This document shows positions 4,620 to 35,093 of a stretch of DNA of 41,287 nt, one piece after another. The first letter of the stretch is position 1. Every line of letters begins with the position of its first letter. The stretch is taken from the NCBI GenBank assembly GCA_032718475.1, contig JAUCBJ010000600.1, positions 1 through 41,287 of the forward strand. Direction: 5' to 3'. Under the pieces are notes generated by a model. It was not told where the DNA came from and searched no databases. It worked only from the letters and a program-made list of their open reading frames with translations. The DNA is from Nemertoderma westbladi (Eukaryota > Animalia > Xenacoelomorpha). Position numbers and translations under genes: made by a program.

Positions 4620-4863
4620 TGTTTTGGATTCACTCATTCAATTGCGGACAATATAATATGAAATAATAATATGCCGATATGACATTACTGCATTATGTAT
4701 TCCAGTATTCTTGATACTCATTTTGTCTGACAATTTCAGTTGCTAACTATAAAAAAGACACTACTGACTGGTCCGTCTAACACTACTGCACTACCGGTAA
4801 CACATACTGACTAACACTACTGCTTACAATAATTGGGACTTAGGTCATATAAATGTCAAGACA
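4620..4863. mobile_element. Solo LTR (244 bp)
   Basis: Starts TGTTTTG and ends CAAGACA (TG...CA, imperfect terminal inverted repeat). Flanked by 5-bp direct repeat CTCTG (4615-4619, 4864-4868). Absent from the opposite arm of the inverted repeat. Confidence 0.85.
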
Positions 4864-5139
4864 CTCTGACATACCTACCGGTAAGGTTTTTACTTAACGT
4901 GCTTGATTAATAAATAAAATACAATTAACTCTTTATTATAGGATTTTCAAGTTTCAACTTCAATTATTAAATATAATATTATCTAATCAAAAACATTTTT
5001 TTATTTTAATTTTGATAATTGATATACAGTATCAATTTATTATTAATAAAAATTGTGAACTAAAATACTTAATAATAATATCTACAATATATATAATACA
5101 ATATATATACAATAATATCTACAATATTTAGAATCATTG

Positions 5140-7989: not shown

Positions 7990-9725
7990 CAGGATATTAT
8001 TAGGATTCAAACTCACATTGGAGGTGTCTCATTGATTCCCCCAAGGTTGACACTAGGACAAAGCCGCCTCCGCTTTGAATGACGTTGTTTTCGCGTGAGG
8101 ACCAGCCTGTGCACAATCTTGTGCTTTGGCAGCCCCCATGGCGAAAATAAGCATGGTGGACAGCCCATGTCTTTCGTGAGATGCCTCATAAAGGACACTG
8201 GCCTTGAAGATTCGGATAATCTCACGAAAGTCATTGGGGATATTTCATTTAATTTCATTTGTTTATTTCTCATTTAAAATGATATTGTTTAAAATACAGG
8301 CACAGATAAAGTAAAAAAAGGCTGAAGGAGCCTGAACAATTTATAACGAGTTTGAGTTCATGGAACCTTAAAGAATTAAGTGATACGCCTATGTTTGGTA
8401 GTGAAACCTGATTGACTTGAGTCATAACAACCTCTAATAAAGTCCGCATTGATTTTGTCCGTAGTAGTTGGATGGCCATGCGATATTACATTTCTTAGGG
8501 TCCGTCAGTCATACCTGTGTCCGAGGAGGGAAATTATGGAAGGCAGGGGTTGGTCCATGGCAGCTCGTCTGTAAGTATTTCCCAACCCTACATAATTTTT
8601 CTTCCCATTGTTCCATATTAGCCCAAGCTGTTGCAATGAATAGTGTGAGCAGGCAGTAGCTCAAATTATACAGTTAGTAATATCGCGAAAGCCTTCCATT
8701 ACGATGTCGGTTGTTCCTGTCAGCAGCCACAATGTTGCATTGTTTACATACCCTCCAACGTAGAAGGCCACGGATGATTTTCCGATGGTAGGTGCTCAAT
8801 AATAATATCGTTGACACAGCGATTCCATCCCATGCTTTAAAGAGAGTGTCGACTTTATACCACCTCACTGCCCATCCATTGTTATGGAAGGCGTTGGATA
8901 TTGCAGCTATATAATTTGTATAATTTCGGAGTAAGCACTCATTGGGTTACTGTGAAATGTGTGACCCAGAAATTTTTTTAGTGAGTGGGCTTCTGGAATG
9001 AGGCTCCCGTCTGATTACATGTATAGTGGTCGATACACAGTACGATTTGCGCAACTAAGATCCAGTTACACTTGGTAGGTTCCATTTTTAGGTTTACTTT
9101 GTCCATTTCTGCTTTGAATATAGCTATTAATTTTATTACTTCTTCTTTGCAGCATCCAAGAAAGAGTACTTTATCCGGTAGCTGATAACACCCATCCATA
9201 TGGAGTATAACCTGCACCCTAGTTTGCTTGTTTCTAGTTTCCCAATTGCATCTTTGAGGTATAGGTTGAAGAATATGGGTGAGAGCAGAGACCCTTGTTT
9301 AACTCCAAGTGTGGTATGAATGCCTTTTTCCATGACCGAGTCACCAAATTTCAAAAAGTAACATACTCGTACTGTAATAGTGAATTAATGTGAGGCAGAT
9401 GAAGGGAGGAATTGATGCGGATAGTTTCCTAAATAGAACACGGAGGCAAACGTTGTCAAAAGCACCGGCAATATCCAGTTGGTACATAAATACTGATTGA
9501 CGTGATTGCCTATTAATCTCCAGGCACTCCATCACCATGGCAACCACAAGGTCTTAGGAGTTGTAGAGGTGCAACTTTGTTGATAAGCTGGAATAGCATT
9601 CTTAATACACGCTGCATAGGGCTTGCCAATTGTGGATTGCATTGTGGTCGCCAAATACTTATGTAAAGCCAGTATAGCATCCCGATGTGTAGTTGCAATG
9701 CAATGGACCGATTATAGTAGTAGTA
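7990..9725 (+). mobile_element. RTE-like LINE 3' fragment split by another LINE insertion (pieces ~7990-8241 and ~9556-9725)
   Basis: Homologous to 13265-13600 and 30250-30600 (cgtgaggaccagcctgtgcacaatctt; aaggacactggccttgaagat; gcattcttaat; gttgcaatgc; (TAG)n tail). Homology stops at ~8241 and resumes at ~9556. Confidence 0.75.
8243..9555 (-). mobile_element. 5'-truncated LINE (L2/CR1-group-like RT) with (TGAAA)-like tail
   Basis: Broken ORFs with RT motifs QLDIAGAFDNV, GVKQGSLLSPIFFNLYL, LKMEPTKC; minus-strand tail aaataaacaaatgaaattaaatgaaa at ~8243-8270. Confidence 0.8.
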
Positions 9726-11217: not shown

Positions 11218-11431
11218 ATTATTTTTAGAGAAATTGCCAATTATTACTCTTCGGTTTGCACTCTACATATTGCAATATGATGCCATGTAATTATTGTTTA
11301 TTGAAGGCCTGTAGCGCGATAAAATATGTTGGTTCACACTAAATTTAAACTAAAATATCATGCAGACTGCTAAGAAATCGATGCAAAGAAATCGATTGTA
11401 TGGGTAATTTTTTAAAGTTCTATAATATTTG

Positions 11432-12472
11432 TAGCTTGCCTCCCGTGTTGGTTCGGGGGCCTCGGTGTACCATATGTTATGCTGACAGCCCCAGGTGCTT
11501 ACCTCGCCTTAGTACACCACTACCACGAACTAACCTCTGTTATCACTGGAAACTTGGATGAACCTATGTTCCTTCAAGCTGCCACCGAGTTATGGGAATG
11601 CTACTTACCTTCCTTTGATATTCCTGAGATATCAAGCAATCAAAGATCTTGGCAGGACCCAGTATCCAAATCCCAACTGGCATCACTAATTTCATCTAGT
11701 TATAATAACTCTGTATCCCGCCTTAAGGGCTTCCAAGCACCTGGCTCTGGTGATTGGTTAAGTGCCATCCCTTCTGCTACCCTTGGCCCCCGCCTTGCCG
11801 ATGAACAGTTCGGTATGGCTGTTGCTCTCCGTCTTGGCGCGTCTTGGCTGTTGCTCTCCGTCTTGTGTGTGTGGCGCCGTCGTTGATGCTTCAGCCAGCC
11901 ATGCCTTAGTCTGCAAGTTTGCCAAGAGCAGACATGCACGACACCACCTGTGCAATAATACCATCTACCATGCTCTCCAATCCGCTGAGGTACCCGCAAC
12001 CCTTGAACCAGTCGGGCTCAGCAACAACAACGACCTGAAGCACCCCGATGGAGCCACTCAGCTCCCCTGGTCAAACGGCAAAGCCCTCGTGTGGGACTTT
12101 ACCTGCACCCATCGCCTTTCCGCCTCATACTCAAATGCCGCATGCTTAGATGGCTCAACAGTCGCTGAATTGGCAGAAGGGCGGAAGCTTGCTAAGTATT
12201 CGAACTTTGCCAAAGACTACTTAGTCCAGCCTGTCGCTGTGGAGACGCTTGGTGGCATAGTTCCTTTATCCTTGTCATTCCTTCGGCAGTTAGGCCACCT
12301 CTTGGAGAAGGTCAGCGGCAACAAGAGGTCTACGCAATTCCTGCGTCAACGTCTTAGGATTGCAATCCAAGCCAGGAATGCCTCCTGCATAAAGGAGTCA
12401 TTCAACCTCCCCGAGAACCGCTTCTACCGGGAGACCCTCCCTCCCGCCCTCCCTCCCTATAACTATAACTAG
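11432..12472 (+). pseudogene. CRE-like non-LTR retrotransposon 3' part (post-RT region, zinc finger, restriction-like endonuclease), frameshifted
   Basis: GGLG-like motif at ~11450; APGSGDWLSAIPSATLG..L..EQF.MAVALRLG; CVCG...HALVC; RHARH; EPVGL; HPDG...PWSNGKALVWDFT; K.AKY; PVAVETLG; FLRQRL.IAIQ..NA. Confidence 0.85.
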
Positions 12473-12997: not shown

Positions 12998-13610
12998 AGG
13001 TCAGGTGAAGACTTTCCAATACGCAAGGGGAAAACATGGGCCGCTTTGAGTGGGCTGTCCAGGATTTGGAAGACACAGAAAGTTAAGGTTCAACTATTTA
13101 GAGCAGCAGTAGAACCAGTACTCCCCTATGGGAGTCCATGCTGGGCTCTAACTGCTGAGGACATCAAATTTCTGCATTGCACATTCACAAGAATGCTATG
13201 CCGGGTTCATTGTGTCAAGTACAATTAGTACAGTCAGTCAAGTACATATTTCCAACCAACTATATCATATTGGCTTGGGGGTGTCCAATTGGTCCCCCAA
13301 TGCATGACACTAGAACAAAGCCGTCTCCACATTGCTTTCGTCGTGAGGACCAGCCTGTGCACAATCTTGTGCTTTGAAAGCCTATGAAGAAAATTTGCAA
13401 TAAGGCTGACAGCCCATGACTTTTTTTTAAGACGCCTCTTAAAAGGACATTGGGCGGGCTTGAATATGCGAATGATCTCGCGAAAGTCGTGGGCGAAAGG
13501 GAGTTGTGGCAATGCAATTTTGTCATCCGGCATAGCATTCTTAATGCACGCTGCATCTCAGCATCTCAATGTACAGTTGCAATGCTGCAGGTCGATTATA
13601 GATAGATATA
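12998..13610 (+). mobile_element. RTE-like LINE 3' fragment
   Basis: LSRIWK..KVQLFRAAVEPVLPYGSPCWALT; HCFRREDQPVHNLVL; 3' UTR shared with the copies at ~9570-9725 and ~30500-30600. Confidence 0.8.
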
Positions 13611-14559: not shown

Positions 14560-14774
14560 AACTCCGAACTGGAACCCAGCTCAAGAAGCGAACTGAAAAG
14601 CTATGGACTCATACTGGACCCAATGGCCACAAGTCCCAGATAGACCACATTCTGTTTCGTAGGAAATACAGGAGCTCTGTAAAAGACTGTAGTGCATTTA
14701 CAATTCGACCTTTCTCCAGTGAACACTGCCTTATTGTTTGTGACTAAGGTGAGACTTTTAAGAGTCTGCGCTAG
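14560..14774 (+). pseudogene. AP-endonuclease end of an RTE-like LINE (left piece, interrupted by the BEL element)
   Basis: Translates KKRTEKLWTHTGPNGHKSQIDHILFRRKYRSSVKDCSAF...SSEHCLIV, matching the APE C-terminal WT..IDHIL..SDH motifs. Confidence 0.8.
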
Positions 14775-15368
14775 TGTTAGCGTATTCAATTCCGCTAACC
14801 ACCCCACACAAAGTTGGCCAAGCAGGAGCTTTAAGCAATATTGGGAGTACGAGGTTGATTGCCAATCAACCTCGTATCACCCCAATAAACGGGGCGACAA
14901 ACCCCAAAGGGAGACACAAACAGAGGGGGTCAGAGGTTACACCTCCGGGAGGGAGAGAGTGACAGCAGCGCCAGGGGAAACACTCCCAGAGAGATGGGAG
15001 GGCAAGAATTGGGTTATTAGCCAATGGGGGGCAGGCATCCACTGAGTAATGTAATACGGCCAACCAGTGCAATATATTACCAGTTATTGTTCCTCATTTA
15101 TTTCACTTTAGTTAGTCAGTTTAGTTAGGGCAGAACGGGAACTCTTATCACCGTCCGCTGCCGCCATCATCATTTTGTGTATTACCGGTACTTATTCATT
15201 CCAACTTCCATTTCAACTGTGCTTATACTCTATCTTATATATATATTTATACATACGGAGCAACAATAGTCAGAGTTATTCAATAACATCAGAACTCTTT
15301 TCACACACACGGCAGGGACGCGTAGACAAGATAACCGGGATAAATCGGGATTCTCGGATCCCGTCACA
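14775..15368 (+). repeat. 5' LTR (594 bp)
   Basis: TGTTAGCG...CCGTCACA; differs from the 3' LTR by about 10 substitutions and 2 small indels (manual comparison). Confidence 0.96.
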
Positions 15369-15437
15369 GTGATAAGGACCAGCAGCTGCCCGATACCGCG
15401 ATACGATAAGACACCCGAAACAAACTGACTGCCAACC

Positions 15438-18400
15438 ATGAGTCGAGAAGGAGAGACGACACCGCCGCAGACCCCGGACGGCGATCTAACGATCCGTGAG
15501 GCCGCGACACGACGGTACCGACCCACGACGCCGGATCCGTCGACCATAGACAATCCGGCAATCCAAGAGGTGGGGGGCCGCCTACAATGAGAGGATGAGT
15601 CGAGAGAGGAGAGAGACGAGTCGACACACGACGGCGGTCGACGTGCCGATGTCACCGGCCAGCCACAGGCCGAGGGCGACGGACGGCCCACCAGAACGGC
15701 GACGGTGGGGCCGCCGGTACGATGCCGGACATGGAGGGATAAAGGGGACATCGGCGATGAGGACGTCGGGGTCAGCGACCGGCTCCGACGAGCCTACACC
15801 GCGACCCGGAGGTAACTAAGAGAAGCCAAAGGAGGGGCCAAGATAGACCAGGTGAAGCTAGAGAAGCGGCTAGGTGAGTCGAATAAATATTTTGATTACT
15901 TAGTGCGCTTTGGGCAGGGAGAACTAGCCGATGAGAGAGCGAGAGGGGTCGCCACCGAACTGTTTGAACTGTGGGAATGTAGGGGTATGGAACCTAGCGT
16001 AGTGTATGTAGGGCCATACTTAGTCGATGCCCGGGGAATTAAGTTGGTGGGTTGGAGAGGGCCGCAGGAGGGCGAATCCGAGGTTAACTCCGAGGATTCG
16101 GTCTCATCGGTCGGCGAAAGTTCCAGGAAGTGGGGGAAAGTTAGTAGGATGGGAAGGCGACGGGAGTCCGTCGCGACCGATAAGTCTGCTACATCCTCCG
16201 CGAAAGTAAGACGGGTGATGGAAATAGATCTGGCGTGCCAGCTCGATCTGGCGGCGCTAGACCAGAGAGAATTAGAGAGACAGTTGGAAGAAGGGAGTGC
16301 GTTATTAGAGAAGGAGAAAGAACTGGCTAGAGAGAACAGAGAGAGAGCCGAAAAGGTCGCGAGAAGTTTTAAGGAGTGTGAGGATATAGGGAGGATGGAA
16401 AGGAAGGAGCAAGAAGAGAGCGAGGCGGCGAGTGAGGCGAGAGAGCAGAGTGAACGTAAATAGCGTGAGGCGAGTGAGCAGAATAGACGTGAAGAACGTG
16501 AGGCGAGAGAGCAGAGTGAGCGAAAAGAGCGCGAGGCGAGACGACTGGAGAGAGTTGTGAGAGAGGCGGAGTTAGCCGATCAGAGTTCACGAGAGGATAG
16601 AGAGAGAGAAATAATGGGAATGCGTGTGCGGGATGATTTGCATGCCTGCCTAAGGGGGCTTATTCTGTATCAAGCCAAACAGAAGCGCTGACTAGAACTG
16701 GCGCAGATGGGGCTGTCAGAGAGCGAGGCTGGCTCGAGTAGTATTTATGAGGAGCCAGGAGTTAGGGAAACATTTAGTAATACCCCACTTACAGGGACCG
16801 GACGACAGACCCAAGACTGGTGTGACCGTACGGGCGGGAGGGGTAATAATAATAATAATACAGTAGAGAACGCTAATATTAATAGTACCGTAGTGGATAA
16901 TTCTAACCAAACTTTCATTGCAGGAAATAATATTTTGCCCGACAGTAGTAATTTAAATCCGAACGATTCTAATATAAATGTACAAAGTAGTCCGAATAAT
17001 TTAATAATAGTCTAAACCCGAATATAAAAAATAATTCAAATAATATAATTACGCAAAATAATTCAAATAATTTAAATTTAAATACACAAAATAATTTAAA
17101 TAATAATCCCGTTTCAAATTCTAATAATTCTGACAATTTAATTGATTTAGAAGATTTAATTGATTTAACAGATAATATTGGGAATGGTGCTATTAATATG
17201 AACGTGGCGGATGTGCATAGCCCGGCAAATGAAGGCCTGGTAGGCCACGTAGTCAGTAGGCAGGAGGTGGCGGGGGTGAGAAACCCCAATGAGGGCCTGG
17301 TAGGCCACGTAGTTAGTAGGCAGGAAGTGGCGGGGTTGAGTCAACCCGAGGGGGGACTGGTAGGCCACGTAGTTAGTAGGCAGGAAGTGGTGGGGTTGAG
17401 TCAACCCGAGGAGGGCCTGGTAGGCCACACAGTAGTAGAGGGAGAGGCGGGGGTGAATAGACCCAGCCGCAGTAGGGTTAGTGTGTCGACTAGAGAGGGG
17501 TGTAGAAGTGAAGTAAGAGGTAGTGAAGTGATAGGTGGCGAGTGGGGGGGGGGGGGGGGGGGGGGGCTACAGGAGCCCCACAACGAGAGATTAGCAGCGA
17601 GAGGGGGGGGGGGGGGGCAGTGAGTGCCCCACAGGCGTCGGCGGATCAATGCGCGGGGCGAATTAGGTGAACCGCAGCACCCGGCGATGGAGAATAGTAG
17701 GGGGGTTGCGAGTATCCCCAGCGGCGTGCGACCGAGCAGAGAGAGAGCGAGGTTGACGTCGCGAGAGGGCGAGCGACGAGACGTCGAGCCCAGTCAGAAG
17801 AGGGAAGAAGAACAGTGGAGTTTAACCGGGAGGTCGACGAGAGATCTCACGACCGGGGATACTGCACTACAGAGAGAAGAAGGGAAGAGGAGTAGAAGAA
17901 GTGTCGTCGCGAACGACAGGAGAGCGAGGACGGACAGCGAGCCGTCGGTAGTAGAGATGGAGACCGAGAGTCAGTGGGGTCGAACTCCGGGAGATTGCCG
18001 TCGCCCCGGGGAGACGCGACCTGACGAGGCGTACTACGCGCAGAGAGAGGGGTACAGGATGTACCGGTACGAGGACGAGAGCAGTAGAGGGGGTCGAAGA
18101 GAAACTTCCCGACGGGATCTGCCTAGCCGATCGAGAGTACGGTAGCCGCGGGGAGGATTATTCGAGAAGGTTAAACTTTGATCCCGAGCGACACATACAG
18201 ACTGCAGGACATACTGTAGGCCTTACTGCACATACCATAGGCCATGCTGGGAGAGATAATGTAGGCGATAGGATAGCGCGGACGACGGGATTAAACCCGG
18301 AAGTTGCAGGAGTACATACCGGCAGGTAGGCCAGAAGTAGATAGGCCTATACCGGTACCAGCACAGCAGTATGACTACAGCATGCAGGGACATAACATAT

Positions 18401-21400
18401 ATCCAGGGGAGGGGAGAGTTATTGCGGATAGGTGCATGGGCCCCAATATATTAACATCAACCCCAGTATTAAACATACCGGTGGGGGGGGGGGGGGGGGG
18501 ACAGGGTGACATTCCCCCATCACAATATCAACAATATATCCCAGTAGGAATAAGATCATCGAACCCCTTGGACGAGAATAGATCGTGCGACACCGAAATA
18601 TGGAAGGGGCCGCTACCCCCAATGATATATCCAAGTCAAAGGAAAGCGGCAGACAGGACGAACGGACCGCACCCAATGGGAGAATCTATACAGCATCCAT
18701 TGAACCCATTGGAAGCACAAGCAATGTGAATGGCTACACTAATCGATGCATTAAGAACTAGGATCGAGTTACCACCCGTGGAACCGTTCAAATTCGATGG
18801 AAGTAGGCCGGAAGAATACCTGCAGTTTCGGCGCATGTATAGCAATGAAATATTAACGAAGAATTTGACACAAGCGGAGTGCCTAAAGTATCTGCAAGTA
18901 TATACAGGAGGCCCAGCATACGACATCGTGAGGCAATAACAGGGCATTGAGGGTGGCTTCACGACAGCATGGCGGGCACTAGACAGGGAGTATGGGCACC
19001 CGGCCAAGATCATCCGGCAGACCCTGAGAGGTATAACATCGGGTGGCCTACAGGATAACCCCGTTAGCATAAAGACATTCGCTAACAAAGTTGAGAAGGC
19101 GCTAATCGTGCTAAAGACACTGGACGCACCATACGAACTCAACGCATCCAATAACATCACCACGATAGCGCAGGCACTGCCGATGTGGTTGCGCAACAAG
19201 TGGAGGAAGATTGCTTTCTCCACTCGAGGCAGAAAGGGTGCGGAACCGGGTTTAGAAGAAATGTCGAGCTTCTTAAACTATGAAGCCGAACTAATAACGG
19301 ACCCAGTCTATAGCGAGGATAGCCTGGGAAAGGGACCAAAGACCGATTACCACAGGCCGAAACCAGAACACAATGCGTCGAACGCATTGCCAAAGCTCAG
19401 ACAGTCACTGCCGTACGCGGCGATGCAGGGGACTGCTAGTCCACAAGTAGCCGGGGGTAAGACCACATCATGGAGCGGACAGGGGAAAAATAACAACACA
19501 AATAAACATAACCCCAGCACGCCCAGTAGGCCGAACCCAAGCAATAAGAACAATAGGGACTTTGGTACGAACGCAAGTGCAATACGCAGCGCACTGTATA
19601 AGGACGGCTACAACCCAAAGAACAAATGCCAATTACATACAAATGCACTTCATCAGACCATGAACTGCAGGTATTGGCAAGCGCTACCCAGGGAAGATCA
19701 GGTAGAATATGCGAGGAGAAATGAAATCTGTTCGCGATGTGTGATGAGTGGACATAGAGCTAACCAATGCAAGGAAGCGCCAATTAAATTCGGTCAAAGT
19801 AAAGGTCAGACAATGGCAACGAGCACCGTAGGGGCAAAGAAGAGAGGAACGGTACTACTTGGGGTAGTACCAGTGCGAGTGATTGGGGAAGGCAATCGAT
19901 CAGTGACCACACTGATGCTGGTCGACAGTGGAGCAGCCTTCACGCTGGTTGAGGATTGGGTGGCCAAAGAGATAGGATTGAGAACGAGGCCAAGTAGAAT
20001 GGTGGTAACAACCATTTCCAGCAAAGATGAGGTCCTGGAGATGAGGACCGGACGGTGCGCGATAGCAGCGATAGCACCGGGATGCGACTATGGGGCGACC
20101 ATCGACCCCAGAGGTGATAGAGTCGATAGATATCAACGCCAGGTGGCCAACCAACATCGAGGTCGAACAATACAAGTTCCTGGACAGTATCGACTTCTCA
20201 ATCCCAGAGGTGGACGTTAGGAAGGTATCCATTATAGTAGGAATGGACTGCCCGACGGCCCACGAGAGAATGCGAACGGTCTTTGGCGAAGACAGGCAGT
20301 GTGACCCGGTGGTGATTTTAACACCATTCGGGTGGACGCTGAGCGGCTCAATCAGGAGCAAAATACCGTTTAGGATGTCGGAGACATCAGGATGCATGTT
20401 CGCGGGAACTATGCGAGAAATGGGAGATGAGGGAGCGGAGGAGCAGCTCAGGAGACTGCTCAGGCAGGATTTTGAGGGATTGAAAGAGACCGGGGTCGGG
20501 ACCTCGGTAGAAGACAAACAGGCTTTACAAAGTGTGGAGGAATCGATGACATGCGGTATACCATAGGGATGGTATGGAAGCTACCGAAGCTACCGCTACC
20601 CGACAATAAAGGAATGGTACTCAGGAGGCTTCGTAAGTTGAAGCAGACGCTAAAACGGAGCCCCGAGAAGAATGAGTACATTCACAAGACGATTAAGAAG
20701 TATGTCGAGAAAGGATGGGCCATAGAGTTACCGGTCGACGAACCAAACACGGACAGGACCTATTACCTGCCACTCCACGTGGCTCTAGACCCGAAGAAAG
20801 GTAAACTGCGGATGGTAGTTGACGCATCGGCTAAGACCAACGGCAAATGCCTAAATGATTATCTGCTGGAGGGTCCCAACATCTACAACTCAGGGATCGA
20901 GGTCCTACTCAGATTCAGGAATGGGAAACACGCTTTCACCTGCGACATCGAAGGCATGTTCAACCAAGTCCGTGTAACGGAAGAGGATAGCGACAGCCAG
21001 CGCTTCCTATGGTACAACTGCGACGAGGAACCGTCGACCATACCGATGTATAAGATGATAGTACAGAATATGGGAGCCAAGTCGTCTTCATTTACGACGA
21101 CTGTGGCCGTAAGAGACACGGTAAAAGGGAAGGAAGATAAATATAGCGCCAAAGCCGTCGATATGATTCGACGCGGCTTCTATGTAGACGACGGGATGGA
21201 GTCTGGAAATACGGTTAAGGAACTACTGGATACCGGGCGCGAGGTTCGCGACATCCTAAAAGGATCCGGGTTTAACCTAACCAAGTTCCAATCCAGCTGC
21301 AAGAGTTCATGAAAGCCATAGAGGACAGGAGGCCAGAGTCGACCATGGATAATCCCACGACAGCCAAGGGACAGGACATGGCGAACAAGAGAGTAGAGTC

Positions 21401-23827
21401 CCAACAGAAGGCACTAGGGATCGTGTGGAACCGAGAGACAGACGAGTTGAAATACCAGTTGAGTCAGGAGGGCGCAGACATCCACACAAAGAGGGGCTAT
21501 GTGTCGTACATAGCAAGGATATACGATCCCCTAGGCCTAGCATCCCCATTACTAGTCACGGGGAAGCAGATACTCAAGAAGGGTATACAAGCTGAAGGAG
21601 GATTGGGACACAGAGGTCCCGGAAGAGATCAGCAAGCAATGGTGCAAGTGGACAGAGAGTTTAGAGCAGATGGGCACATACAGCATGCCACGCGTATATT
21701 TCCCGGATGGGGACATGACGAATCTGGATCTGCACATGTTCTCTGATGCGTCATTAGAGGCATACGGAGCGGCACTCTACTTAGTACAATGAGAGGGGAC
21801 TCACAAGCCCAGACTCGCATTCAGCAAGGCGAAGTCGACACCGCCAGATTCAGCATCAGTTCCGAAACTCGAGTTGACAGCTGCGAGGTTAGGAGTTAGG
21901 GCCACAGCCTACTTGATGGACGCCATTCCCAACATAGTGGAGACACACTACTGGACGGACTCCATGGTAGTGCTTGGTTGGCTATATAACGAAAGGACGA
22001 GATACCCTATATTTGTCGCAAACAGGGTGGACGAGATAAGGGCAACGACAGAATTAGAAAGGTGGCACTACTGCCCAACGGACGAGAACCCAGCGGACTT
22101 GTTATCGAGGGGCGTAGCACGCCACACTTTCTTAAAAAAGGAAGTATTGTGGCAGCACGGGCCGCAATTTCTGAATGATAGAACAGCCTGGCCGCCGATG
22201 AAGAAGGTGGACCCGGGCTCAGGGGAAATAACATTAGAGGAAGAGGGAGGAGATTCAGAAGGTGAGGAGATATACAGCCAGATGGTGAGGGAGATAAGGG
22301 AGGTGCAACCGAAATCAGAAGAACTGTGCGATAACCCGACGGACAAACTCCTTAGCTACAGCTCAAGTTGGTACAAGACCAAGAAGTTAGTGGTGTACTG
22401 CAGAGCCTTCGGGGACTTCCTTAAGGGAATCGGTAAAGACACAAAAGGTAAAACAACCATCGATCAGGGGGGGGGCGGCCAAGGCCGTCATCCGCTACGA
22501 ACAGAGGAAGAATTACGGCGACGAGGTGGAACGCTTCGGTAAACAACAGCATCTCTGACGGAACAGTGAGCTGATTGCGCTGTCGCCACAACTCAATGCT
22601 GATGGAATCTTAGTAATGAACTCTAGGGTGTTGAACAACAACAGTATCATCATTCCGCCAAAGCCCATCATCATCCCTAATGGATCGCCGATAGTCCATC
22701 AGATCATCTGGGACTCCCATAAGTCGATATTGCACGGGGGCACCAACCGAACCTTCACGGAGATACGAAGGACCTTTTGGGTCAAACAGTTAAGAAAGAA
22801 GGTAAAGGCGGTAGTAGGGCAGTGCCAGACCTGCCGACGAACGAAGAAGGAGCGAGCCATACAGGAGATGGCGCCACTACCGGCCAGCAGGGTGAGACAG
22901 CACGACCCGCCATTCACGCACTGCGGTATGGATATGTTTGGGCCGATAAAGATTAAGGTGATGCAGCACACGGAGAAGCGCTACGGCATTATCTTCGTAT
23001 GTAACAACACGCGGGCGGTAGGGATAGAACTCGCCCAAGATGCTACAGCATCGGCATTCATTAATGCCCTAGAAAGGTTCAGAGACCGCAAAGGTGGGAC
23101 GATCGCAGTAATATACTCCGACAACGGAACCAACTTTGTGGGGGCAGAGAACGAGATGGCAGATGCCTTGGATATCCTGGAAGGGGAGGAAGTCAGGGCA
23201 GCCATGAGAAGACGACAGGTGAAGTGGGAGAGGAGGACGCCGTATGCTCCGCATACTCTAGGATGCGTCGAGAGACTCGTGGGTAGTTCCAAGCATCTGA
23301 TGACGAAGTTGATGAACACCCACATGGTAACAGAGGACGTACTGAGGACGGTACTAGCAAAGTGTGAGGGTATCATTAATAGCAGACCGCTATATCCAAA
23401 AAATGATGACCCAGAGTCATTAGATGTGCTGATGCCCAGTCACTTTCTAATGGAGAGGCCGGCGACCATCGACATGCGGAGTGTAGACCCTGACGATATA
23501 CACTCCCGACAGAGTTGGAAAGTCGCCAAGGCGATAAGCGCAGAGTACTGGGGGAGGTGGGTCGAGGAATATCTACCCACGCTCCATAGGAGAAGCAAGT
23601 GGAGGAATGCGAATAGGGAGTTAAAGGAGGGTGATCTGGTAATCGTCACGGACTATACCATCATCAACAACCAGTGGCGATTGGCGAGAGTTGTGGGCAC
23701 TTACTCTGATGAGGACGGAAGAGTCTGATCAGTAGAAGTGCGGATAGGTGGCATAATAGGAGCGAAAGATAGAAAGACCTATAGGAGGGCTGTAGGTAAG
23801 TGCTGCCTTCTGGAGGGAGCACCATAG
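15438..23827 (+). pseudogene. BEL/Pao gag-pol polyprotein with several stops and frameshifts
   Basis: Long low-complexity N-terminus; gag PFKFDGSRPEEYLQF (~18785); Cys/His knuckles CQLH...H...C and CSRCVMSGHRANQC; protease LVDSGA (~19920); TPFGWTLSG; RT YYLPLHV, KLRMVVDASA, LNDYLLEGP, DIEGMFNQV, FYVDD (~21180); RNase H LHMFSDAS, PKLELTAA, WTDSMVVLGW, NPADLLSRG; integrase H...HGG, C..C, DMFGP, SDNGTNFVGA, ERLV; C-terminal WGRWVEEYLPTL. Confidence 0.93.
17227..17430 (+). repeat. 60-bp coding tandem repeat in gag (about 3.5 copies)
   Basis: ctggtaggccacgtagttagtaggcaggaagtgg recurs every 60 bp; peptide EGLVGHVVSRQEVAG. Confidence 0.9.
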
Positions 23828-23977
23828 TGTTTAGTCGTCCAAGTTTTGGACTGAGGGGGGTGGGATTGAGGGCGATACGCCCTTCCCACACACAAAAAAA
23901 AAATAAAATAAAATAAAATAAAAGAAAGAGAAAGTAATAGTACATAATAGGTACGCAGCAAGTAGGCAGATAGAAGT

Positions 23978-24540
23978 AGTAAGAGGGTACGTAGTACCGT
24001 TAGTTAGTTAGTAGTAAGAGGGTATGTAGTACCGTTAGTTAGATAGTTAGTTAGTAGTAAGAGGGTACATAGTACCGTTAGTTAGATAGTTAGCTAGTAG
24101 TAAGAGGGTACGTAGTACCGTTAGTTGAGAGAGAGTTAGAGGTTAGTAAGAGGGTACGTAGTACCGGTTAGTAGGAGTTAGTTAGAGGTTAGTAAGAGGA
24201 TACATAGTACCGTTAGTTGAGAGAGAGTTAGAGGCTAGTAAGAGGGTACGTAGTACCGGCTAGTAGGAGTTAGTTAGAGGTTAGTAAGAGGGTACGTAGT
24301 ACCGGTTAGTAGAAGTTAGTTAGAGGTTAGTAAGAGGGTACGTAGTACCGGCTAGTAGGAGTTGGTTAGAGGTTAGTAAGAGGGTATGTAGTACCGGTTA
24401 GTAGAAGTTAGTTAGAGGTTAGTAAGAGGGTACATGGTACCGGTTAGTAAGAGTTAGTAGAAGTTAGTTAGAAGTTAGTAAGAGGGTACGTAGTACCAGT
24501 TAGTAGAAGTTAGTTAGAAGTTAGTGGTAGAAGGGTATGT
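23978..24540 (+). repeat. Array of 12 (+1 partial) hairpin-core repeats between pol and the extra ORF
   Basis: Core agtaagagGGTAC-gta-GTACCg at ~23978, 24013, 24056, 24099, 24145, 24191, 24237, 24283, 24329, 24375, 24421, 24477. Period mostly 46 bp; spacers built from TTAG/AGTT/AG units. Confidence 0.92.
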
Positions 24541-25002
24541 ATGATATATATATTAGTTAGTAGTGAGTAGCGAGAGGGGGGCACGTGAGTACAGCTGGAT
24601 AAATTGTGTAGGCCACGCGACGCATACTGTTGTAATGCACAAGCCCACAGAGTAGGCCAGAATGTGGATTATGAAATAGAGTAATCCATCGGCAATAATA
24701 AGTAGTAGCACAGTAGTAGGATTGAATTAAATTAAAAATAAAAATAAAAGGTAGAAATTAAACAAATTATGGTAACAGTAGGAGAAAAATTCTGAAACAT
24801 AATTAAAGTAATGGACAAAATTACAATTTAAAGTACAATTTAACAGTTTTAAGAAATTAAGTAGGAAAATTAGGCTATAACTTAGAATTCTGCGAGAAGT
24901 AGGCCATTATCGAATTGAATAAACCATCCTAACCTTATCACTCATCTGTACTGCGCCTTGGCAAGGCACCACCTTACAGGTGAGCGAGTGAGAGAGTTCG
25001 AA

Positions 25003-27417
25003 ATGGCGGAGAAACTGGTCAGGAAGAGAAAGGCGGAGTTAGGAGGAAAGGAGATACTGGTGGATTTCACCGAGAGGCATCCGGAAGAGAAGACGAGGGG
25101 ATACTACGAGCGGTTAGAGAGAGGTCACAAAGCGAGAGTGCTACAGGACCATTTCAGGGAGGTGCACGAACAGCGGCTGGTCGGGACCTACGGGACGCCG
25201 TCGCTGGACAACGCGATCTTCGAGCATTTCCACTACGTGGTGAAAGGAGACGAAGCGAAGTTTGGGATTCCGAAGTACGCAAGAGAGCCACCAAGAAAGG
25301 ATTGGAAGAGGTTCGTAGAGTCCATCAGCAGAGGAGGATACATGGTCCTAGATGATGAGGAGACCGTAGAAGACGAGGAGGGTTCGAGGAGAGGATCGGC
25401 GGGGTCGGCCAGAACCATACTCCTACATTTGGCTGCGCCAAATGGGGATATTTTCCTATTCGACCTGGGAATGTATGGGAAGAAGGATGGGCCGAAGTTG
25501 AACCGGTTGCCGAAGGCGGTGCAAAAACTAGTGAGAGAGAAGTCGACGACGAAAGTGGGATCGGCAATTCGCGACGATGCGGAGAGAATCATCGGTCCGG
25601 ACACCCCCAACCTTCTGGATATGCAGACGGTCTACATGGCTATGACAGCACCAGACGGGTTGGGACTAGTGGAGAACTCAAGCCATTGTGGAGCGGTGGC
25701 GATGGGCCAGCTAATGGGGCTCATGTGTCACAAACCAATGGACTGGAGTAAGTTCAGAGAGGAGTACAGAGCGGAATTGGTGAACTCGCTGAAGTGGGGA
25801 GCGAGACCAGGAATACAAGAGGTGTATCAATTCCGGAGAGGAGCGATAAAGGTATATCAGAAGCGATATATCCTGCAGGAAGACTGGATAATGATGGGTT
25901 TGCTTAACCTATTCATGACCGTCGTCATTGAGAAAGAACCAACGGCATTCCTATTATCGGGATCACCCCTAAGCTACAGAAGAGCCTTCAAGACGGCTTT
26001 CGAGGGTCTGGTAGACCACCCGGGGCTGAAGGGCGAGTCGGTGTACTATAACTGCCGACATCTGGTAGACGGGGAGGTAGATACGCCATATCAGAGATGG
26101 GAGCAGCTAGAGGCGGATAGACGAGAAGTGAAGCGATTGGAAGAAATCGCTAGACAGGAGAGGCGAGAAGCAGAAGAAAGGGAGGAGAAAGCTAGGGCAC
26201 AGAGCTACGGCTTCGAGGAACAGGCGGCCTTAGATGAACTTCGTTGGACGTCATCAGGGAGTTCGGGGGAGTCTCTAGGGCGAGAATTAGGGTGGACGGT
26301 GGGATCACCGAAACAGTCGACATCGGGATTGCAGACCACGCCCATACCAGCGGGCGCCGAGGGCAATCAGCCGCTAAGGAGGCTAGGGGAGCTGGAAGGA
26401 TGGAAAGTTACGGGCGAGAGCCAAGGTGGAAAGGGACACAGTGGGTCCACCGGGATACCGGGGTTGGAGCCACTCCCAGAGGAGGACGAGGATGACGACG
26501 AGTTCAGAGAGATGCCGCCCATCGGGAGGATCGGCCACTCGGACACGGACTGGGTTGGCGGGAGGGTGGTGACAGCCAGTGGTGCGAGGGCCTTCTGGGA
26601 GAGACCCGGCAAGCGGGCCTGGGTGCATGAGGAGCCGGCGATGGATTTCGCGGGGAGCACCATCAGGTTGGGCGAGCAACCGGGAACGGCACCACGGGTA
26701 GTATTCGGGGAGACGATGCCCGGGAGGGGCGAGGAGATCGACGTGGACAGGGACGCTAACGTCCAGAAGTTCGCTTACCAGCGACTCCACAGACCGCGGA
26801 GATCGCTTGGGATGAAAGACGACGTGGGGTGGGAGACATTGGTGCTCGGCTATGATTACTGTGGGAGGCAAACCCACCAGGAAAGGAGCTGTTTGTACCG
26901 GTTCCAGAAAGGGACTAGTTGTCTCTACTGCCGCGAGTCGAGCCACAGGATGGGGGCGTGTCCACGGCTGCACAACCGGTGTTAGAAGTGCAGCTTCCGG
27001 GGGCACTACGGACGCCAGTGCGACTGGATGGACGACAAAGAGAAGTTTAGGATCTTCGAGGAGTGGGCCGACGTCGGGGCCATGACTCGGCAACGTATGA
27101 AGGCCCAGGAGTTTCGGTGGGGCTTCTTTAATATCAACCAGGAGGCCCACTTGGAGATTATCAAACAGAGACTTCCGTTTACCTACCAGGAGGTAGCGAC
27201 GGCGGCGTCGTATGCCGGGGTGATAAATACGCAGAGGTATTTGGACAGGTGGATGCCACAGAACAGAGGGGAGTTCAGAGATTTCTTGGCGGAGCATGTG
27301 CCGCGGGCGATGAAAGTGATCCTATGGGACGCCACCAGGGTGAGACAACAGGGCCACTCGGAGGGGCCACCCGCGAAGCGATACCGGGAGCTAATAACAC
27401 CAGCGCCCAAGGAGTAG
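25003..27417 (+). CDS. Extra ORF of the BEL element: WRN/Mut-7-like DEDDy 3'-5' exonuclease domain + coiled coil + CCHC knuckles (one in-frame TAG at 26983)
   Basis: ORFs 24958-26985 and 27028-27417 share a frame. Exonuclease-like motifs in order: VLDDE, LLHLAAPNGDIFLFDL, LPKAVQKLVREKSTTKVGSAIRDDAERI, LLDMQ, YQKRYILQED. Knuckles CLYCRESSHRMGAC, C*KCSFRGHYGRQC and degenerate YDYCGRQTHQERSC. First ATG at 25003. Confidence 0.72.
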
Positions 27418-28263
27418 ACAACCGGGATTAGTAGAGAGGTGACGGCGAGGGTCAGGAGCCTGAAGGGAGATAAGACCAAGGGAGCGGCAGTGACCAGGAA
27501 ACGACCAAGAGAAGAGGATGACAGAGGGAAGGACTTGAGATGGTTCCCAAAATCAGGTGGAACGAACTAAGACTTCGATGTGGCACGCCTGGAAGGCACC
27601 ACGTGAGACGTGCGAACTCCTAAGTACAAATTCAAATAATTGAAATAATTGAAAAGTGCAATTAGTATGTACGTACGTAACAATCATTAGTTTAGCAAGA
27701 AAATACAATCAAAGTAAATACTATAGTCATATAACCTTTTCCAATTAGCTACTGGGACTGGGGACCAATTGACTATGACAAACGAGACGCTGGACGACTT
27801 CACACTTCTTGAGTGCGACGGCCCAGGGAGGGGGGTGAGACTCGTCCGGAGTAAACGGGCTGAGATGAGGGTTGAGTGATAGCGTGAAGAGAGTGCGGGT
27901 GCAATTCAAGCGTGGGGGGGGGGGGGGGGGGAGGAGTAAGAGGCAGAGTGAGGGACAGGGAGGTCCAAGAGTTAGAATGGAAGTGAAGAGAAGTAGAGGA
28001 GAATCAGGGTGAGAGTGGAGGAGTTAGAGTGGAGTTAGAGTGGCGAAAGTGTTGGGGAAACAAAAATCGTGTGAGAGGAATTCACGATCGGCCCGACACG
28101 GGACGCCAGGAGAACGGGGTAGCGATATCATACCCATAGGGAGCGGCCTGGAAAGCCAGCTCCGGAGAAAATAATTCCACCCCACACCCGATAGTAGATC
28201 GGGATCCAGCGGAATTTTAGCGCACTAGAGGTGGATGCTATCTTCTCACAGGGAAGATAACAT

Positions 28264-28272
28264 GGGGGGGAG
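28264..28272 (+). other. Polypurine tract
   Basis: GGGGGGGAG immediately before the 3' LTR. Confidence 0.85.
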
Positions 28273-28863
28273 TGTTAGCGTATTCAATTCCGCTAACCAC
28301 CCCACACAAAGTTGGCCAAGCAGGAGCTTTAAGCAATATTGGGAGTACAAGGTTGATTGCCAATCAACCTCGTATCACCCCAATAAACAGGGCGACAAAC
28401 CCCAAAGGGAGACACACACAGCGGGGGTCAGAGGTTACACCTCCGGGAGGGAGAGAGTGACAGCAGCCAGGGGAAACACTCCCAGAGAGATGTGAGGGCG
28501 AGAATTGGGTTATTAGCCAATGGGGGGCAGGCATCCACTGAGTAATGTAATACGGCCAACCAGTGCAATATATTACCAGTTATTGTTCCTCATTTATTTC
28601 ACTTTAGTTAGTCAGTTTAGTTAGGGCAGAACGGGAACTCTTATCACCGTCCACTGCCGCCATCATCATTCAGTGTATTACCGGTACTTATTCATTCCAA
28701 CTTCCATTTCAACTGTGCTTATACTCTATCTTATATATATATTTATACATACGGAGCAACAATAGTCAGATTATTCAATAACATCAGAACTCTTTTCACA
28801 CACACGGCGGGGACGCGTAGACAAGATAACCGGGATAAATCGGGATTCTCGGATCCCGTCACA
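28273..28863 (+). repeat. 3' LTR (591 bp)
   Basis: Direct repeat of 14775-15368, followed by TSD GCTAG. Confidence 0.96.
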
Positions 28864-30602
28864 GCTAGCATACTTACGAAATCTGCAATGGCATGACTGG
28901 TCCTCTCTGTTGCAACAGCTCAGTGTGAGATCCAGCATCACACTAAAGCTGAGCAACAGTAACGAGGTTCTCGCCTCTGTGGCAACAGATCTCTGCGAGG
29001 GCTATACTGCCTTCACAGAAGCAGTTAAGGTAGCAGCTGCAGAAAAGTTCCTGTATAACCCTGAAACAGGAAAAAGGCCACCTGGACTGACCACAGAATT
29101 CGGAAGTGCCGAAATGTCCTCTCTAAGGCGCAGAATGAGTGCCGACTCTGGCACACGAGAACAGCCAAGGATGAAGTTAAGCTGCATCTAGGTCCCTTAA
29201 CAGGCAGTACTCTGATATTCTGATGGAGCTTATCAATAAGCAGGTTGATGCCATTAACAATGCTGATGATAGTAGGCAATAAGCCCAGGATGGCAATCAA
29301 TAAACCTGCTCACTGGGAGGAAAAGCCAACCAACCACCAAGATTAAGGCTGAATCTCCAGCTGAACGCCTCAAAGGTTGGAAGGACCACTTTGAGAAGCT
29401 TCTAAACAATGACAGTGTATTGCCTAATAAAGTTGAGGTACATCATGTATCTGAATCTGTGCTCACAGATATCCCTATTGGTGGCATCCTCTTTGCTGAA
29501 ATCAAAACTGCAGCTGGGAGTCTCAAGACCAATCGTGCCAGTGGAGTAGATGGCGCGCCCCCTGAAGTCCACAAAATTCCTGAGTGTTTGGAGCTCATTC
29601 ACCCAATTTTTGTGGACATGTACCTCTTTTGTGGACCTCAAGAACTGAAAACAAATAAGTATGTCCAGCCCCTAAGAAGAGCAACCTAACAACCAATGGA
29701 TCTTTTCGTGGAATCTCGTTTATTTCGATTGCTGCAAAGGTATACCACAGAATTCAACCTACTGGCACAAGAAGTAGAGGAAATCCAGCAAAGTATCTTA
29801 CTGATCAAGACTTTGCTGATGACTTAGGGGTACTGTCAGAATCACTAGAGGGAGCTCAAAGACTCATTTGCTCATTGGAGCAGGTTGCTTATAGTGTTGG
29901 TTTTTTGTAAATTCCAAGAAGTCCAAAATCATGACAATGTTCCTAGACAGCCATCAAGAAATGTCTGATCGTAAGGGCACAAGCTCTAGGGACAGCTTGT
30001 TTGAGCATGTGGATGACTTTTGCTACTTGGGATCATGGATCAGAAAGTCAGGTGAAGTCCTTCCGATACGTAAGTCATCGTTAAATAGTCTGCCCAGGCT
30101 TTGGAAGTCCCATAGAATAAAACGCAACCTTAAGGTTCAATTATTTATGGCAGTAGTAGTACCAGTCTGGATGGCACTTTCACAAGAATGCTGCGCCGGG
30201 TTCATTGTGTCAAGTACAATGAACACATCTTCAATCAGACTCTATACAACATTGGAGGTGTTCCATTAATCTCTATGTAGCTTGGCACTTTAACGGAACC
30301 GCCTCCGCTTTGCAGCACATTGCTTCTGCCGTGAGGACCAGCCAGTGCATAATCTTCTGCTTTACGGCCCTTAGGGAGCTTATAAGCATGGTGGACAGCC
30401 CATGACTTTCGCCCATGACAGCCCATGAGACGCATCTTAAAGGACACTGGCCTTGAAGATGCGGATGATCTAGCAAATGTCGTGGGTGATGGGGATTTGT
30501 GGCGGCGCAATTTTGTCGACAAGCCGGCACAGCATTCTTAATATATATGTAAAATATATATAATGCAGCTGCAATGCAGCACGCCGCTCGTAGTAGTAGT
30601 AG
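28864..30602 (+). mobile_element. RTE-like LINE, right piece (degenerate RT and 3' end with (TAG)n tail)
   Basis: WKDHFEKLLN; LKTNRASGVDGAPPEV; FRGISFISIAAKVY; DFADDL (~29810); VDDFCYLGSWI; RLRFAAHC; ends tagtagtagtag. Confidence 0.88.
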
Positions 30603-31530: not shown

Positions 31531-34500
31531 AGCTCGCTCACTGTCCGAGCTTGCTCACTGTCCGAGCTCGCTCACTGTCCGAGCTCGCTCACTGTCCGAG
31601 CTCGCTCACTGTCCGAGCTCGCTCACTGTCCGAGCTAGCTCACTGTCCGAGCTCGCTCACTGTCCGAGCTTGCTCACTGTCCGAGCTGGCTCACTGTCCG
31701 AGCTCGCTCACTGTCTGAGCTCAGTCACTGTCCGAGCTCGCTCACTGTCCGAGCTTGCTCACTGTCCGAGCTCGCTCAATGTCCGAGCTCACTCACTGAC
31801 CGAGCTCGCTCACTGTCCGAGCTCGCTCACTGTCCGAGCTTGCTCACTGTCCGAGCTCGCTCACTGTCCGAGCTCGCTCACTGTCCGAGCTCGCTCACTG
31901 TCCAAGCTCGCTCACTGTCCAGACTCGCTCACTGTCCGAGCTCGCTCACTGTCCGAGCTCGCTCACTGTCCGAGCTCGCTCACTGTGCGAGCTCGCTCAC
32001 TGTCCGAGCTCGCGCACTGTCCAGACTCGCTCACTGTCCGAGCTCGCGCACTGTCCAGACTCGCTCACTGTCCGAGCTCGCTCACTGTCCGAGCTCGCTC
32101 ACTGTCCGAGCTCGCTCACTGTCCGTGCTCGCTCACTGTCCGAGCTCGCTCACTGTCCGAGCTCGCTCACTGTCTGAACTCGCTCACTGTCCGAGCTCGC
32201 TCACTGTCCGAGCTCGCTCACTGTCCGAGCTCGCTCACTATCCGAGCTCGCTCACTGTCCAGACTCGCTTACTGTCCGAGCTCGCTCACTGTCCGAGCTC
32301 GCTCACTTTCCGAGCTCGCTCACTGTCCGAGCTCGCTCACTGTCCGAGCTTGCTCACTGTCCGAGCTCGCTCACTGTCCGAGCTCGCTCACTGTCCGAGC
32401 TCGCTCACTGTCCGAGCTCGCTCACTGTCCGAGCTAGCTCACTGTCCGAGCTCGCTCACTGTCCGAGCTCGCTCACTGTCCGAGCTCGCGCGCTGTCCAG
32501 ACTCGCTCACTGTCCGAGCTCGCTCACTGTCCGAGCTCGCTCACTGTCCGAGCTCGCTCACTGTCCGAGCTCGCGCACTGTCCGAGCTCGCGCACTGTCC
32601 AGACTCGCTCACTGTCCGAGCTCGCTCACTGTCCGAGCTCGCTCACTGTCCGAGCTCGCTTACTGTCCGAGCTCGCGCACTGTCCAGACTCGCTCACTGT
32701 CCGAGCTCGCGCACTGTCCAGACTCGCTCACTGTCCGAGCTCGCGCACTGTCCAGACTCGCTCACTGTCCGAGCTCGCTCACTGTCCGAGCTCGCTCACT
32801 GTCCGAGCTCGCTTACTGTCCGAGCTCGCGCACTGTCCAGACTCGCTCACTGTCCGAGCTCGCGCACTGTCCAGACTCGCTCACTGTCCGAGCTCGCTCA
32901 CTGTCCGAGCTCGCTCACTGTCCGAGCTCGCGCACTGTCCAGACTCGCTCACTGTCCGAGCTCGCTCACTGTCCGAGCTCGCTCACTGTCCGAGCTCGCT
33001 CACTGTCCGAGCTCGCACACTGTCCGAGCTCGCTCACTGTCCGAGCTCGCACACTGTCCGAGCTCGCTCACTGTCCGAGCTCGCTCACTGTCCGAGCTCG
33101 CTCACTGTCCGAGCTCGCTCACTGTCCGAGCTCGCACACTGTCCGAGCTCGCTCACTGTCCGAGCTCGCTCACTGTCCGAGCTCGCTCACTGTCCGAGCT
33201 CGCTCACTGTCCGAGCTCGCACACTGTCCGAGCTCGCTTACTGTCCGAGCTCGCTCACTGTCCGAGCTCGCGCACTGTCCAGACTCGCTCACTGTCCGAG
33301 CTCGCTCACTGTCCGAGCTCGCTCACTGTCCGAGCTCGCTTACTGTCCGAGCTCGCGCACTGTCCAGACTCGCTCACTGTCCGAGCTCGCGCACTGTCCA
33401 GACTCGCTCACTGTCCGAGCTCGCGCACTGTCCAGACTCGCTCACTGTCCGAGCTCGCTCACTGTCCGAGCTCGCTCACTGTCCGAGCTCGCGCACTGTC
33501 CAGACTCGCTCACTGTCCGAGCTCGCTCACTGTCCGAGCACGCTCACTGTCCGAGCTCGCTCACTGTCCGAGCTCGCTCACTGTCCGAGCTCGCTCACTG
33601 TCCGAGCTCGCTCACTGTCCGAGCTCGCTCATTGTCCGAGCTCGCTCACTGTCCGAGCTCGCTCACTGTCCGAGCTCGCTCACTGTCCGAGCTCGCTCAC
33701 TGTCCGAGCTCGCTCACTGTCCGAGCTCGCTCACTGTCCGAGGTCGCTCACTGTCCGAGCTCGCTCACTGTCCAAGCTCGCTCACTGTCCAGAGCTCGCT
33801 CACTGTCCGAGCTCGCTCACTGTCCGAGCTCGCTCACTGTCCGAGCTTGCTCACTGTCCGAGCTCGCTCACTGTCCGAGCTCGCTCACTGTCCGAGCTCG
33901 CTCACTGTCCGAGCTCGCTCACTGTCCGAGCTCGCTCACTGTCCGAGCTCGCACACTGTCCGAGCTCGCTCACTGTCCGAGCTCGCACACTGTCCGAGCT
34001 CGCTCACTGTCCGAGCTCGCTCACTGTCCGAGCTCGCTCACTGTCCGAGCTCGCTCACTGTCCGAGCTCGCGCACTGTCCAGACTCGCTCACTGTCCGAG
34101 CTCGCTCACTGTCCGAGCTCGCTTACTGTCCGAGCTCGCGCACTGTCCAGACTAGCTCACTGTCCGAGCTCGCGCACTGTCCAGACTCGCTCACTGTCCG
34201 AGCTCGCTCACTGTCCGAGCTCGCTCACTGTCCGAGCTCGCGCACTGTCCAGACTCGCTCACTGTCCGAGCTCGCTCACTGTCCAAGCTCGCTCACTGTC
34301 CGAGCTCGCTCACTGTCCGAGCTCGCGCACTGTCCAGACTCGCTCACTGTCCGAGCTCGCTCACTGTCCGAGCTCGCTCACTGTCCGAGCTCGCTCACTG
34401 TCCGAGCTCGCTCACTGTCCGAGCTCGCTCACTGTCCGAGCTCGCTCACTGTCCGAGCTCGCTCACTGTCCGAGCTCGCTCACTGTCCGAGCTCGCTCAT

Positions 34501-34701
34501 TGTCCGAGCTCGCTCACTGTCCGAGCTCGCTTACTGTCCGAGCTCGCTCACTGTCCGAGCTCGCTCACTGTCCGAGCTCGCTCACTGTCCGAGCTCGCTC
34601 ACTGTCCGAGCTCGCTCACTGTCCGAGCTCGCTCACTGTCCGAGCTCGCTCACTGTCCGAGCTCGCTCACTGTCCGAGCTCGCTCACTGTCCGAGCTCGC
34701 T
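31531..34701. repeat. 17-bp tandem satellite (GCTCGCTCACTGTCCGA)n, about 186 copies
   Basis: Continuous, highly homogeneous array; recurring variant unit CTCGCGCACTGTCCAGA. Confidence 0.98.
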
Positions 34702-35093
34702 CGATCTAGTAATAGTATCAGTTACATTTTGTCGATTCCAATGATATTTTTCCACCAAAATATTAGCATCAAAAAAATTAGATGGTCGAATTTATTTAGA
34801 TACATTTTGAATGATTTCTTATATTTTGTCCAATATTTCTTACATTTCTCTCATTAACTACAGGATGCAAAAATTGTGATTAAATGGGTTTGGCTACAAT
34901 ATTGTACAACACATAATACTTTAATGATTAATGTCACGTGCAATGCTTGACAGTTGATACAAAAGGAGGTAAATTTAATTAAATTATCATTCAAAACCTG
35001 ACAAATTGCAAACGGCACCTTGAATAGACACGTCATCGTCACCTACGTTAAATATTTAATAAATAATAAATATTTAACACGAAGCAGCTTTAA

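Follow-up and report, generated by a model that had tools for sequence, protein, structure and literature searches.

DEDDy exonuclease genes have been captured repeatedly by retroelements, as set out in the text of Rodriguez, Kenefick and Arkhipova (2017, PMC5408684), which reports a DEDDy ORF3 in the Juno and Vesta LTR retrotransposons and in the Athena/Terminon elements of bdelloid rotifers; reviews repeat the finding in passing (PMC6431247, PMC5718144, PMC6338049). According to the same account, third genes of LTR elements are typically read from a message of their own, and the activity of retroelement-carried exonucleases was at that time yet to be shown. A DEDDy domain is also described for DNA transposons of the Dada type, found in Laccaria and Ectocarpus (PMC3706591), and, among cellular enzymes, Trypanosoma brucei RND (TbRND) is described as having CCHC fingers that raise RNA binding and cleavage (PMC7797062; PDB 7C42/7C45). 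The Belpaoviridae mostly have gag and pol only (PMC8742986), and the third genes known in BEL/Pao elements are env-like, as in roo and in mosquito elements with a chuvirus glycoprotein (PMC8742986; PMC3118150, PMC13524379); no word that starts with 'nuclease' occurs in PMC3118150 or PMC13524379, and none that starts with 'exonuclease' in PMC13524379.

The locus described here lies in a window of 41,287 nucleotides (the whole stretch of DNA analysed) from Nemertoderma westbladi: a BEL/Pao element has a third reading frame, ORF3, with a predicted DEDDy 3'-5' exonuclease domain and CCHC zinc knuckles. As Juno and Vesta are described, ORF3 shares with them its place as a separate post-pol ORF in the env position, an RNase D-like DEDDy domain, and the replacement of one acid by Glu. 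The differences, again from the text of PMC5408684, concern the carrier (in rotifers Juno, Vesta, TelKA and Mag, four clades there; BEL/Pao here), the acid that has changed (DEED in rotifers, DEDE through a change in ExoIII here) and the accessory parts: the rotifer ORFs are reported to be without coiled-coil or membrane domains, whereas ORF3 combines a charged helix with a long linker and knuckles, and knuckles are mentioned there in gag and pol only, a comparison made by description. The Dada elements, as described, likewise have a transposon-borne DEDDy domain, and their transposases also have a CCHC finger; unlike in ORF3, however, the domain sits as an insertion within a DNA transposon's DDE transposase, and none of its four acids has changed. 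TbRND resembles ORF3 in that CCHC fingers follow a DEDDy exonuclease, but it is reported as a cellular enzyme trimming guide RNAs, whose four fingers follow the Exo domain at a distance of 28 residues, as against two or three knuckles ~300 residues away in ORF3. Since the two have no sequence match (phmmer in the PDB at E up to 10), the shared design is probably convergent; in structure they match through the circular model described below only. Env-bearing Belpaoviridae likewise have LTRs, a polypurine tract, this gag-pol domain order and a third gene after the integrase, but theirs encodes a membrane protein. EXD2, WRN, Nibbler/Mut-7, EXD1, Egalitarian, RICE1, Rrp6 and RNase D share the predicted fold and motif order with ORF3, at 10-18% identity for the cellular DEDDy enzymes.

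What appears to be new is the BEL/Pao carrier, the architecture, and the ExoIII variant; the kind as such is known from rotifers. An earlier note on this DNA, made from the sequence alone, had named the rotifer precedent, which the text of PMC5408684 bears out, and had treated the combination of exonuclease and knuckles as one not known in a BEL/Pao element: no BEL/Pao exonuclease was found in the literature searched (Repbase, GyDB, Dfam and subscription journals lie outside this scope, and a database annotation may exist), but the pairing is known in the cellular TbRND, as described in PMC7797062.

The element and its third reading frame

Self-comparison of the window gave one long direct repeat, the LTR pair of a 14.1-kb BEL/Pao element with ORF3 inside it (Table 1). 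The LTRs are 98% alike (10 mismatches and 3 gap columns in 594), and in each there is a 29-bp near-perfect palindrome (14848-14876 and 28346-28374). The domain order between them is that of BEL/Pao, PR-RT-RH-IN, by Pfam; Peptidase_A17 (in two pieces) and DUF5641 passed the Pfam cut-offs, as the class assigned in the earlier note would have it, while DUF1759, RVT_1 and rve scored below them. Among the relatives of the integrase region, all 120 of the 120 matches listed carry PF05380 and PF18701, the best at 38% identity, and those that are named come from many animal phyla. Judged by its sequence, the element is a divergent BEL/Pao lineage. Its 14.1 kb stands against the 4.2-10 kb given for BEL/Pao elements in the ICTV profile (PMC8742986), and is due in part to the broken stretch of ~3.1 kb at 15438-18570. 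It precedes the recognisable gag and shows coiled-coil-like segments, charged helices and a run rich in Asn, besides repeats of 33 and 60 bp.

Table 1. Features of the BEL/Pao element, in coordinates of the window
Feature	Position	Strand	Remarks
Target-site duplication (TSD)	left 14770..14774, right 28864-28868		5 bp, identical flanks
5' LTR	14775..15368	+	594 bp, TG..CA
Primer-binding-site position	15369..15388	+	without TGG start
Presumed N-terminal part of gag	15438..18570	+	long, broken; presumably coding; no credible family match
Broken gag-pol	18571..23827	+	DUF1759, knuckles, protease, RT, Peptidase_A17/RNase H, integrase, DUF5641
46-bp tandem array	24012..24525	+	11 copies, in the 1.17 kb that separate ORF3 from pol
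Candidate splice acceptor for ORF3, weak	24920..24980	+	pyrimidine tract, branch-point-like pentamer, CAG/G
ORF3	25003..27417	+	ATG at 25003, 804 codons, final stop 27415-27417
Predicted DEDDy 3'-5' exonuclease domain	25285..25950	+	residues 95-316
ExoI	D117 (25351), E119 (25357)		in register
ExoII	D192 (25576)		in register
ExoIII	Y289 (25867), E293 (25879)		D294 adjoining; Y-x3-E versus the usual Y-x3-D
Charged helix, probably coiled-coil	26098..26217	+	residues 366-405, 58% K/R/D/E; coiled coil suggested by composition
G/S/P-rich, acidic linker	26218..26772	+	residues 406-590; probably largely disordered, from composition
Knuckle cluster	26851..27021	+	degenerate at 617; intact CCHC 640-653; CCHC with stop 660-673
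C-terminal region	27043..27414	+	124 residues without family match; basic cluster at end
Polypurine tract (PPT), G-rich	28264..28272	+	abuts 3' LTR
3' LTR	28273..28863	+	591 bp, TG..CA

ORF3 starts 1.17 kb after pol, beyond the 46-bp array, and thus answers to the ORF of about 800 codons that had been claimed between the integrase and the PPT of a TSD-bounded element. It has a single in-frame stop, codon 661 (26983-26985), and the 660 codons before it compare with a longest stop-free run of 246 in 1000 base shuffles. As read from the assembly, this ORF3 copy is truncated at codon 661; the predicted exonuclease domain lies wholly before the stop, so that the domain should be assayable as it stands. 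Homologue tiling of 18570-23820 placed five frame changes and several stops in gag-pol, which in this copy is, by its lesions, dead. The earlier note's count of one stop in ORF3 against many lesions in gag-pol is therefore true, though the difference does not reach significance (binomial p 0.08-0.16, with two lesion counts).

An env identity for ORF3, denied already in the earlier note, was rejected because the protein has no hydrophobic segment: the highest 19-residue hydropathy is 1.32, the N-terminus is charged, and there is no membrane segment. The exact pattern C-x2-C-x4-H-x4-C occurs twice (residues 640 and 660, the second containing the stop), and a third knuckle-like pattern at residue 617 is without its first Cys, in keeping with the two to three knuckles counted earlier; Pfam scored none of the ORF3 knuckles. 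Basic clusters lie near both ends of the frame (25021-25032 and 27367-27387), and we take them to resemble nuclear localisation signals. Upstream, within 24920-24980, pyrimidine content is higher than in any other 40-base window of 23800-27500, and a CAG/G lies 24 bases ahead of the ATG; as a candidate acceptor the site failed the acceptor filter applied here.

The predicted exonuclease domain

The reference set was made up of 36 bacterial PF01612 proteins, retained from 40 fetched regions (three dropped for wrong frame, one as DEDDh). Their combined profile scored ORF3 at 17.5 bits with a domain E of 1.4e-7, a score reached in none of 500 shuffles (best 9.4), and the HMM alignment spans ExoI to ExoII only; hand-corrected for 24,736 families and 5 profiles, the E-value comes near 0.02. 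With hhalign, the same profile gave a probability of 67% and a score of 35, versus a maximum of 22 among 60 shuffles. A profile of just the EXD2-like subset gave 6.1 bits (0/500 shuffles), and the other subfamily profiles were not significant, with 72 (RND), 32 (NrnC) and 24 (PolA) of 500 shuffles scoring as high. BLASTP of ORF3 against E. coli RNase D reached only E 0.01.

Ungapped motif blocks were placed separately. ExoI places best at residues 105-119 (42/1000 shuffles), ExoII at 174-194 (0/1000), and ExoIII at 282-299 (4/2000, using EXD2-like blocks and a search in residues 207-365), each in the correct order. The ExoIII placement was equalled in 26/2000 shuffles when the EXD2-like blocks were searched over the whole ORF, and in 39 and 103/2000 with all 32 blocks, the latter over the whole ORF; RND and NrnC blocks together placed ExoIII elsewhere. 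The acids of the predicted site are D117-E119-D192-Y289-E293. In the MAFFT alignment, invariant columns are occupied by D117, E119, D192, Q286 and Y289, while E293 takes the column of the ExoIII Asp, in a register that is not discriminating (38/200 shuffles match as many conserved columns). All of the exonuclease motifs named in the earlier note are at their places and in the order given, and its description of ExoIII as divergent is borne out by Y289-x3-E293 with D294 next to it.

A further signal comes from the ESM Atlas, in which 24 of the 30 matches listed for residues 95-345 fall in PF01612 clusters (best 0.93, with the family on 34% of members), the other six listed being unnamed, with scores up to 0.95; shuffled proteins score 0.9 in 4-10 of 100 controls. 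The three best clusters (0.94-0.95) consist of unnamed proteins 213-214 residues long, most often from Basidiomycota where the phylum is known, and may represent an unnamed DEDDy-like family.

From the profile, the block order and the Atlas, we regard it as very probable that residues 95-316 form a DEDDy-type 3'-5' exonuclease fold. The fold proposed in the earlier note is thus supported, whereas its WRN/EXD2/Mut-7 naming is not, since no subfamily can be named, and two of the checks it proposed came out negative: ORF3 has no Pfam match at E up to 1, to PF01612 or otherwise, and the single-sequence AlphaFold model, whose pLDDT is 36, finds nothing in Foldseek at E 0.001. An EXD2 match at rank 24 (E 6) was given no weight, coming as it did from the pLDDT 36 model. 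A model guided by a DEDD alignment reached pLDDT 73 and matches only DEDD nucleases, with top VIA-align Z scores of 14.0-12.0 and rmsd 3.5-4.3 against DEDDy structures and no subfamily standing out; being circular, it speaks for compatibility rather than proof.

No match to ORF3 was found in Pfam, NCBIfam, PHROGs or PDB sequences, and phmmer against 1.84 billion representatives gave two matches, both TPR repeats and neither a true relative. Homologue searches with residues 1-370 and 585-790, restricted to near lengths, found no true relative, and no relatives were found in viral contigs, genome contigs, phages or plasmids. Two matches of ~30 residues to K/E-rich proteins in metagenome contigs were judged spurious. 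This want of any curated-library match could mean that the exonuclease likeness is due to chance and that ORF3, though a genuine gene, has another fold, the more so as the family tested was chosen beforehand, unaided folding failed and Atlas shuffles can reach 0.9; against this stand the profile score, which survives correction, the three Exo blocks in order and the independent Atlas signal, and we hold a chance likeness to be very improbable, the least probable of the readings considered here.

We lean slightly towards catalytic activity of the predicted domain despite the Glu at ExoIII. The alternative is a catalytically weak or dead adaptor that binds RNA, in the manner of EXD1 or Egalitarian, and would localise the element's RNA, shield it, or serve as a decoy in the piRNA pathway: Glu replaces the ExoIII Asp, an unusual Asp lies between the ExoI acids, ORF3 is extremely diverged from all databases searched, its coiled coil and long linker would suit a scaffold, and the text of PMC5408684 mentions DEDD derivatives that have a part in piRNA biogenesis and are inactive. 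Such an adaptor is improbable in our view: the four acid positions and the Tyr position are all filled by acids and Tyr, codon 293 varies only synonymously in the rows listed (below), and the rotifer DEED ORFs are read in the same text as possibly active.

Sister sequences and the possible role of ORF3

Contigs from all four public runs (three samples, three studies) cover the element in 30 of 30 bins. In the largest run, 45,188 pieces aligned to the element, most of them 90-99% identical, a contig depth that is not copy number; the best-covered run may be the window's own source. Seven of the 32 pieces listed (of about 95,800 aligned) fall in ORF3, with 325 differences and 3 gap letters in 2416 bases; so few gaps in diverged pieces fit a kept reading frame, in small numbers; diverged sister sequences cover ORF3, mostly without gaps. 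Twelve variant places are listed for ORF3: the two of intermediate share both fall at third codon positions, and codon 293 has a single listed variant, which is synonymous. Among the 32 listed pieces none bridges pol and ORF3, the linkage being seen for this copy only, and some contigs skip parts of ORF3.

Such deletion forms, the stop in this copy and the non-significant lesion contrast with gag-pol would suit a passive fragment of a host gene, useless to the element. This is very unlikely, marginally less so than a chance likeness: no host-like relative was found, although a conserved nuclease, if captured recently, should still be recognisable, and the ORF3 pieces listed keep frame at 9-21% divergence. 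On the evidence of these sister sequences, ORF3 is a real, family-borne gene, and an accessory one, because among the 120 related BEL polyproteins listed there is no match to ORF3 or to the DEDD profile, and because gag and pol are all that most BEL/Pao elements have.

One role for such a gene would be as a replication helper, in which knuckles carry an active exonuclease into the particle to trim the primer or an RNA 3' end, or to clean cDNA ends. The ORF3 knuckles resemble nucleocapsid fingers, and 3'-end processing has been suggested for the rotifer DEDDy ORFs in the text of PMC5408684. The primer position bears on this as well: the criterion for the Belpaoviridae is a primer site complementary to tRNA-Arg or tRNA-Gly; in this copy the position is without a TGG start. 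Its first 8 bases are complementary, in exact register, to LTR bases 15144-15151 (8 Watson-Crick pairs, reached by 6/300 shuffles), and a self-primer would need a 3' end to be made; the complement is short, however, and not significant once G-U is allowed (9 pairs, equalled by 76/300 shuffles). The first 9 bases are also complementary to the pyrimidine tract before ORF3, at 24933-24941 (4/40 shuffles). Self-priming of the element is possible, the complementarity giving only a hint, or the pairing stretches may merely share a GATA-like word. Against a helper role stand the gag-and-pol-only constitution of most BEL/Pao elements (PMC8742986) and the domain's absence from the related polyproteins listed; we think it unlikely, though less so than a dead adaptor.

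Our preferred reading, held tentatively and at somewhat less than even confidence, is that the third, non-env gene encodes a predicted knuckle-tethered DEDDy exonuclease, likely trimming or destroying host silencing RNAs. The ORF3 product would be made from a separate, probably spliced message; its CCHC knuckles would hold single-stranded RNA and pass its 3' end into a two-metal site, in the manner of trypanosome RND; the exonuclease would shorten that end; and with host silencing RNAs as the substrate, the benefit would be counter-silencing. We favour counter-silencing because the cargo is lineage-specific, fast-diverging and repeatedly captured, which fits host conflict. Rodriguez et al., in the text of PMC5408684, point out that silencing would be promoted by a role like that of Mut-7, and report that copy number is not clearly linked to ORF3. 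A bolder form of counter-silencing, a deep BEL/Pao lineage with an independently acquired, active DEDE-type exoribonuclease that bears nucleocapsid-like knuckles and destroys piRNAs, siRNAs or their precursors, we consider doubtful, though a little less so than the replication helper.

The BEL/Pao case with knuckles suggests repeated, independent capture of exonucleases across LTR superfamilies, and repeated capture points to a general advantage, for example in counter-silencing or priming. Should the predicted exonuclease act against small RNAs, it would be a counter-defence enzyme that an animal transposon itself encodes; and were the reading as an active, anti-silencing DEDE enzyme true, ORF3 would be the first third gene of the Belpaoviridae to specify an enzyme and a rare case, in an animal, of an element that encodes a suppressor of RNA silencing.

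Other features of the window

A second LTR-type element lies on the minus strand at 3-3415, with a gag-like frame that includes two CCHC patterns (2600-3415) and a pol frame open over 868 codons, with matches to protease, DUF7047, RNase H and integrase. Nested inverted repeats at 3877-4934 (164-bp arms at 96%, outer arms of 52 bp) look like a foldback or miniature element. A frame at 11762-12469, within 11416-12469, resembles the C-terminal part of non-LTR elements, and dispersed repeats of 68-73% (8015-8241, 13171-13545 and 30166-30542) lie among decayed RT-like fragments. The long spurious ORFs at 31531-34702 are due to a 17-bp satellite, present there in 186.5 copies with 93% matches.
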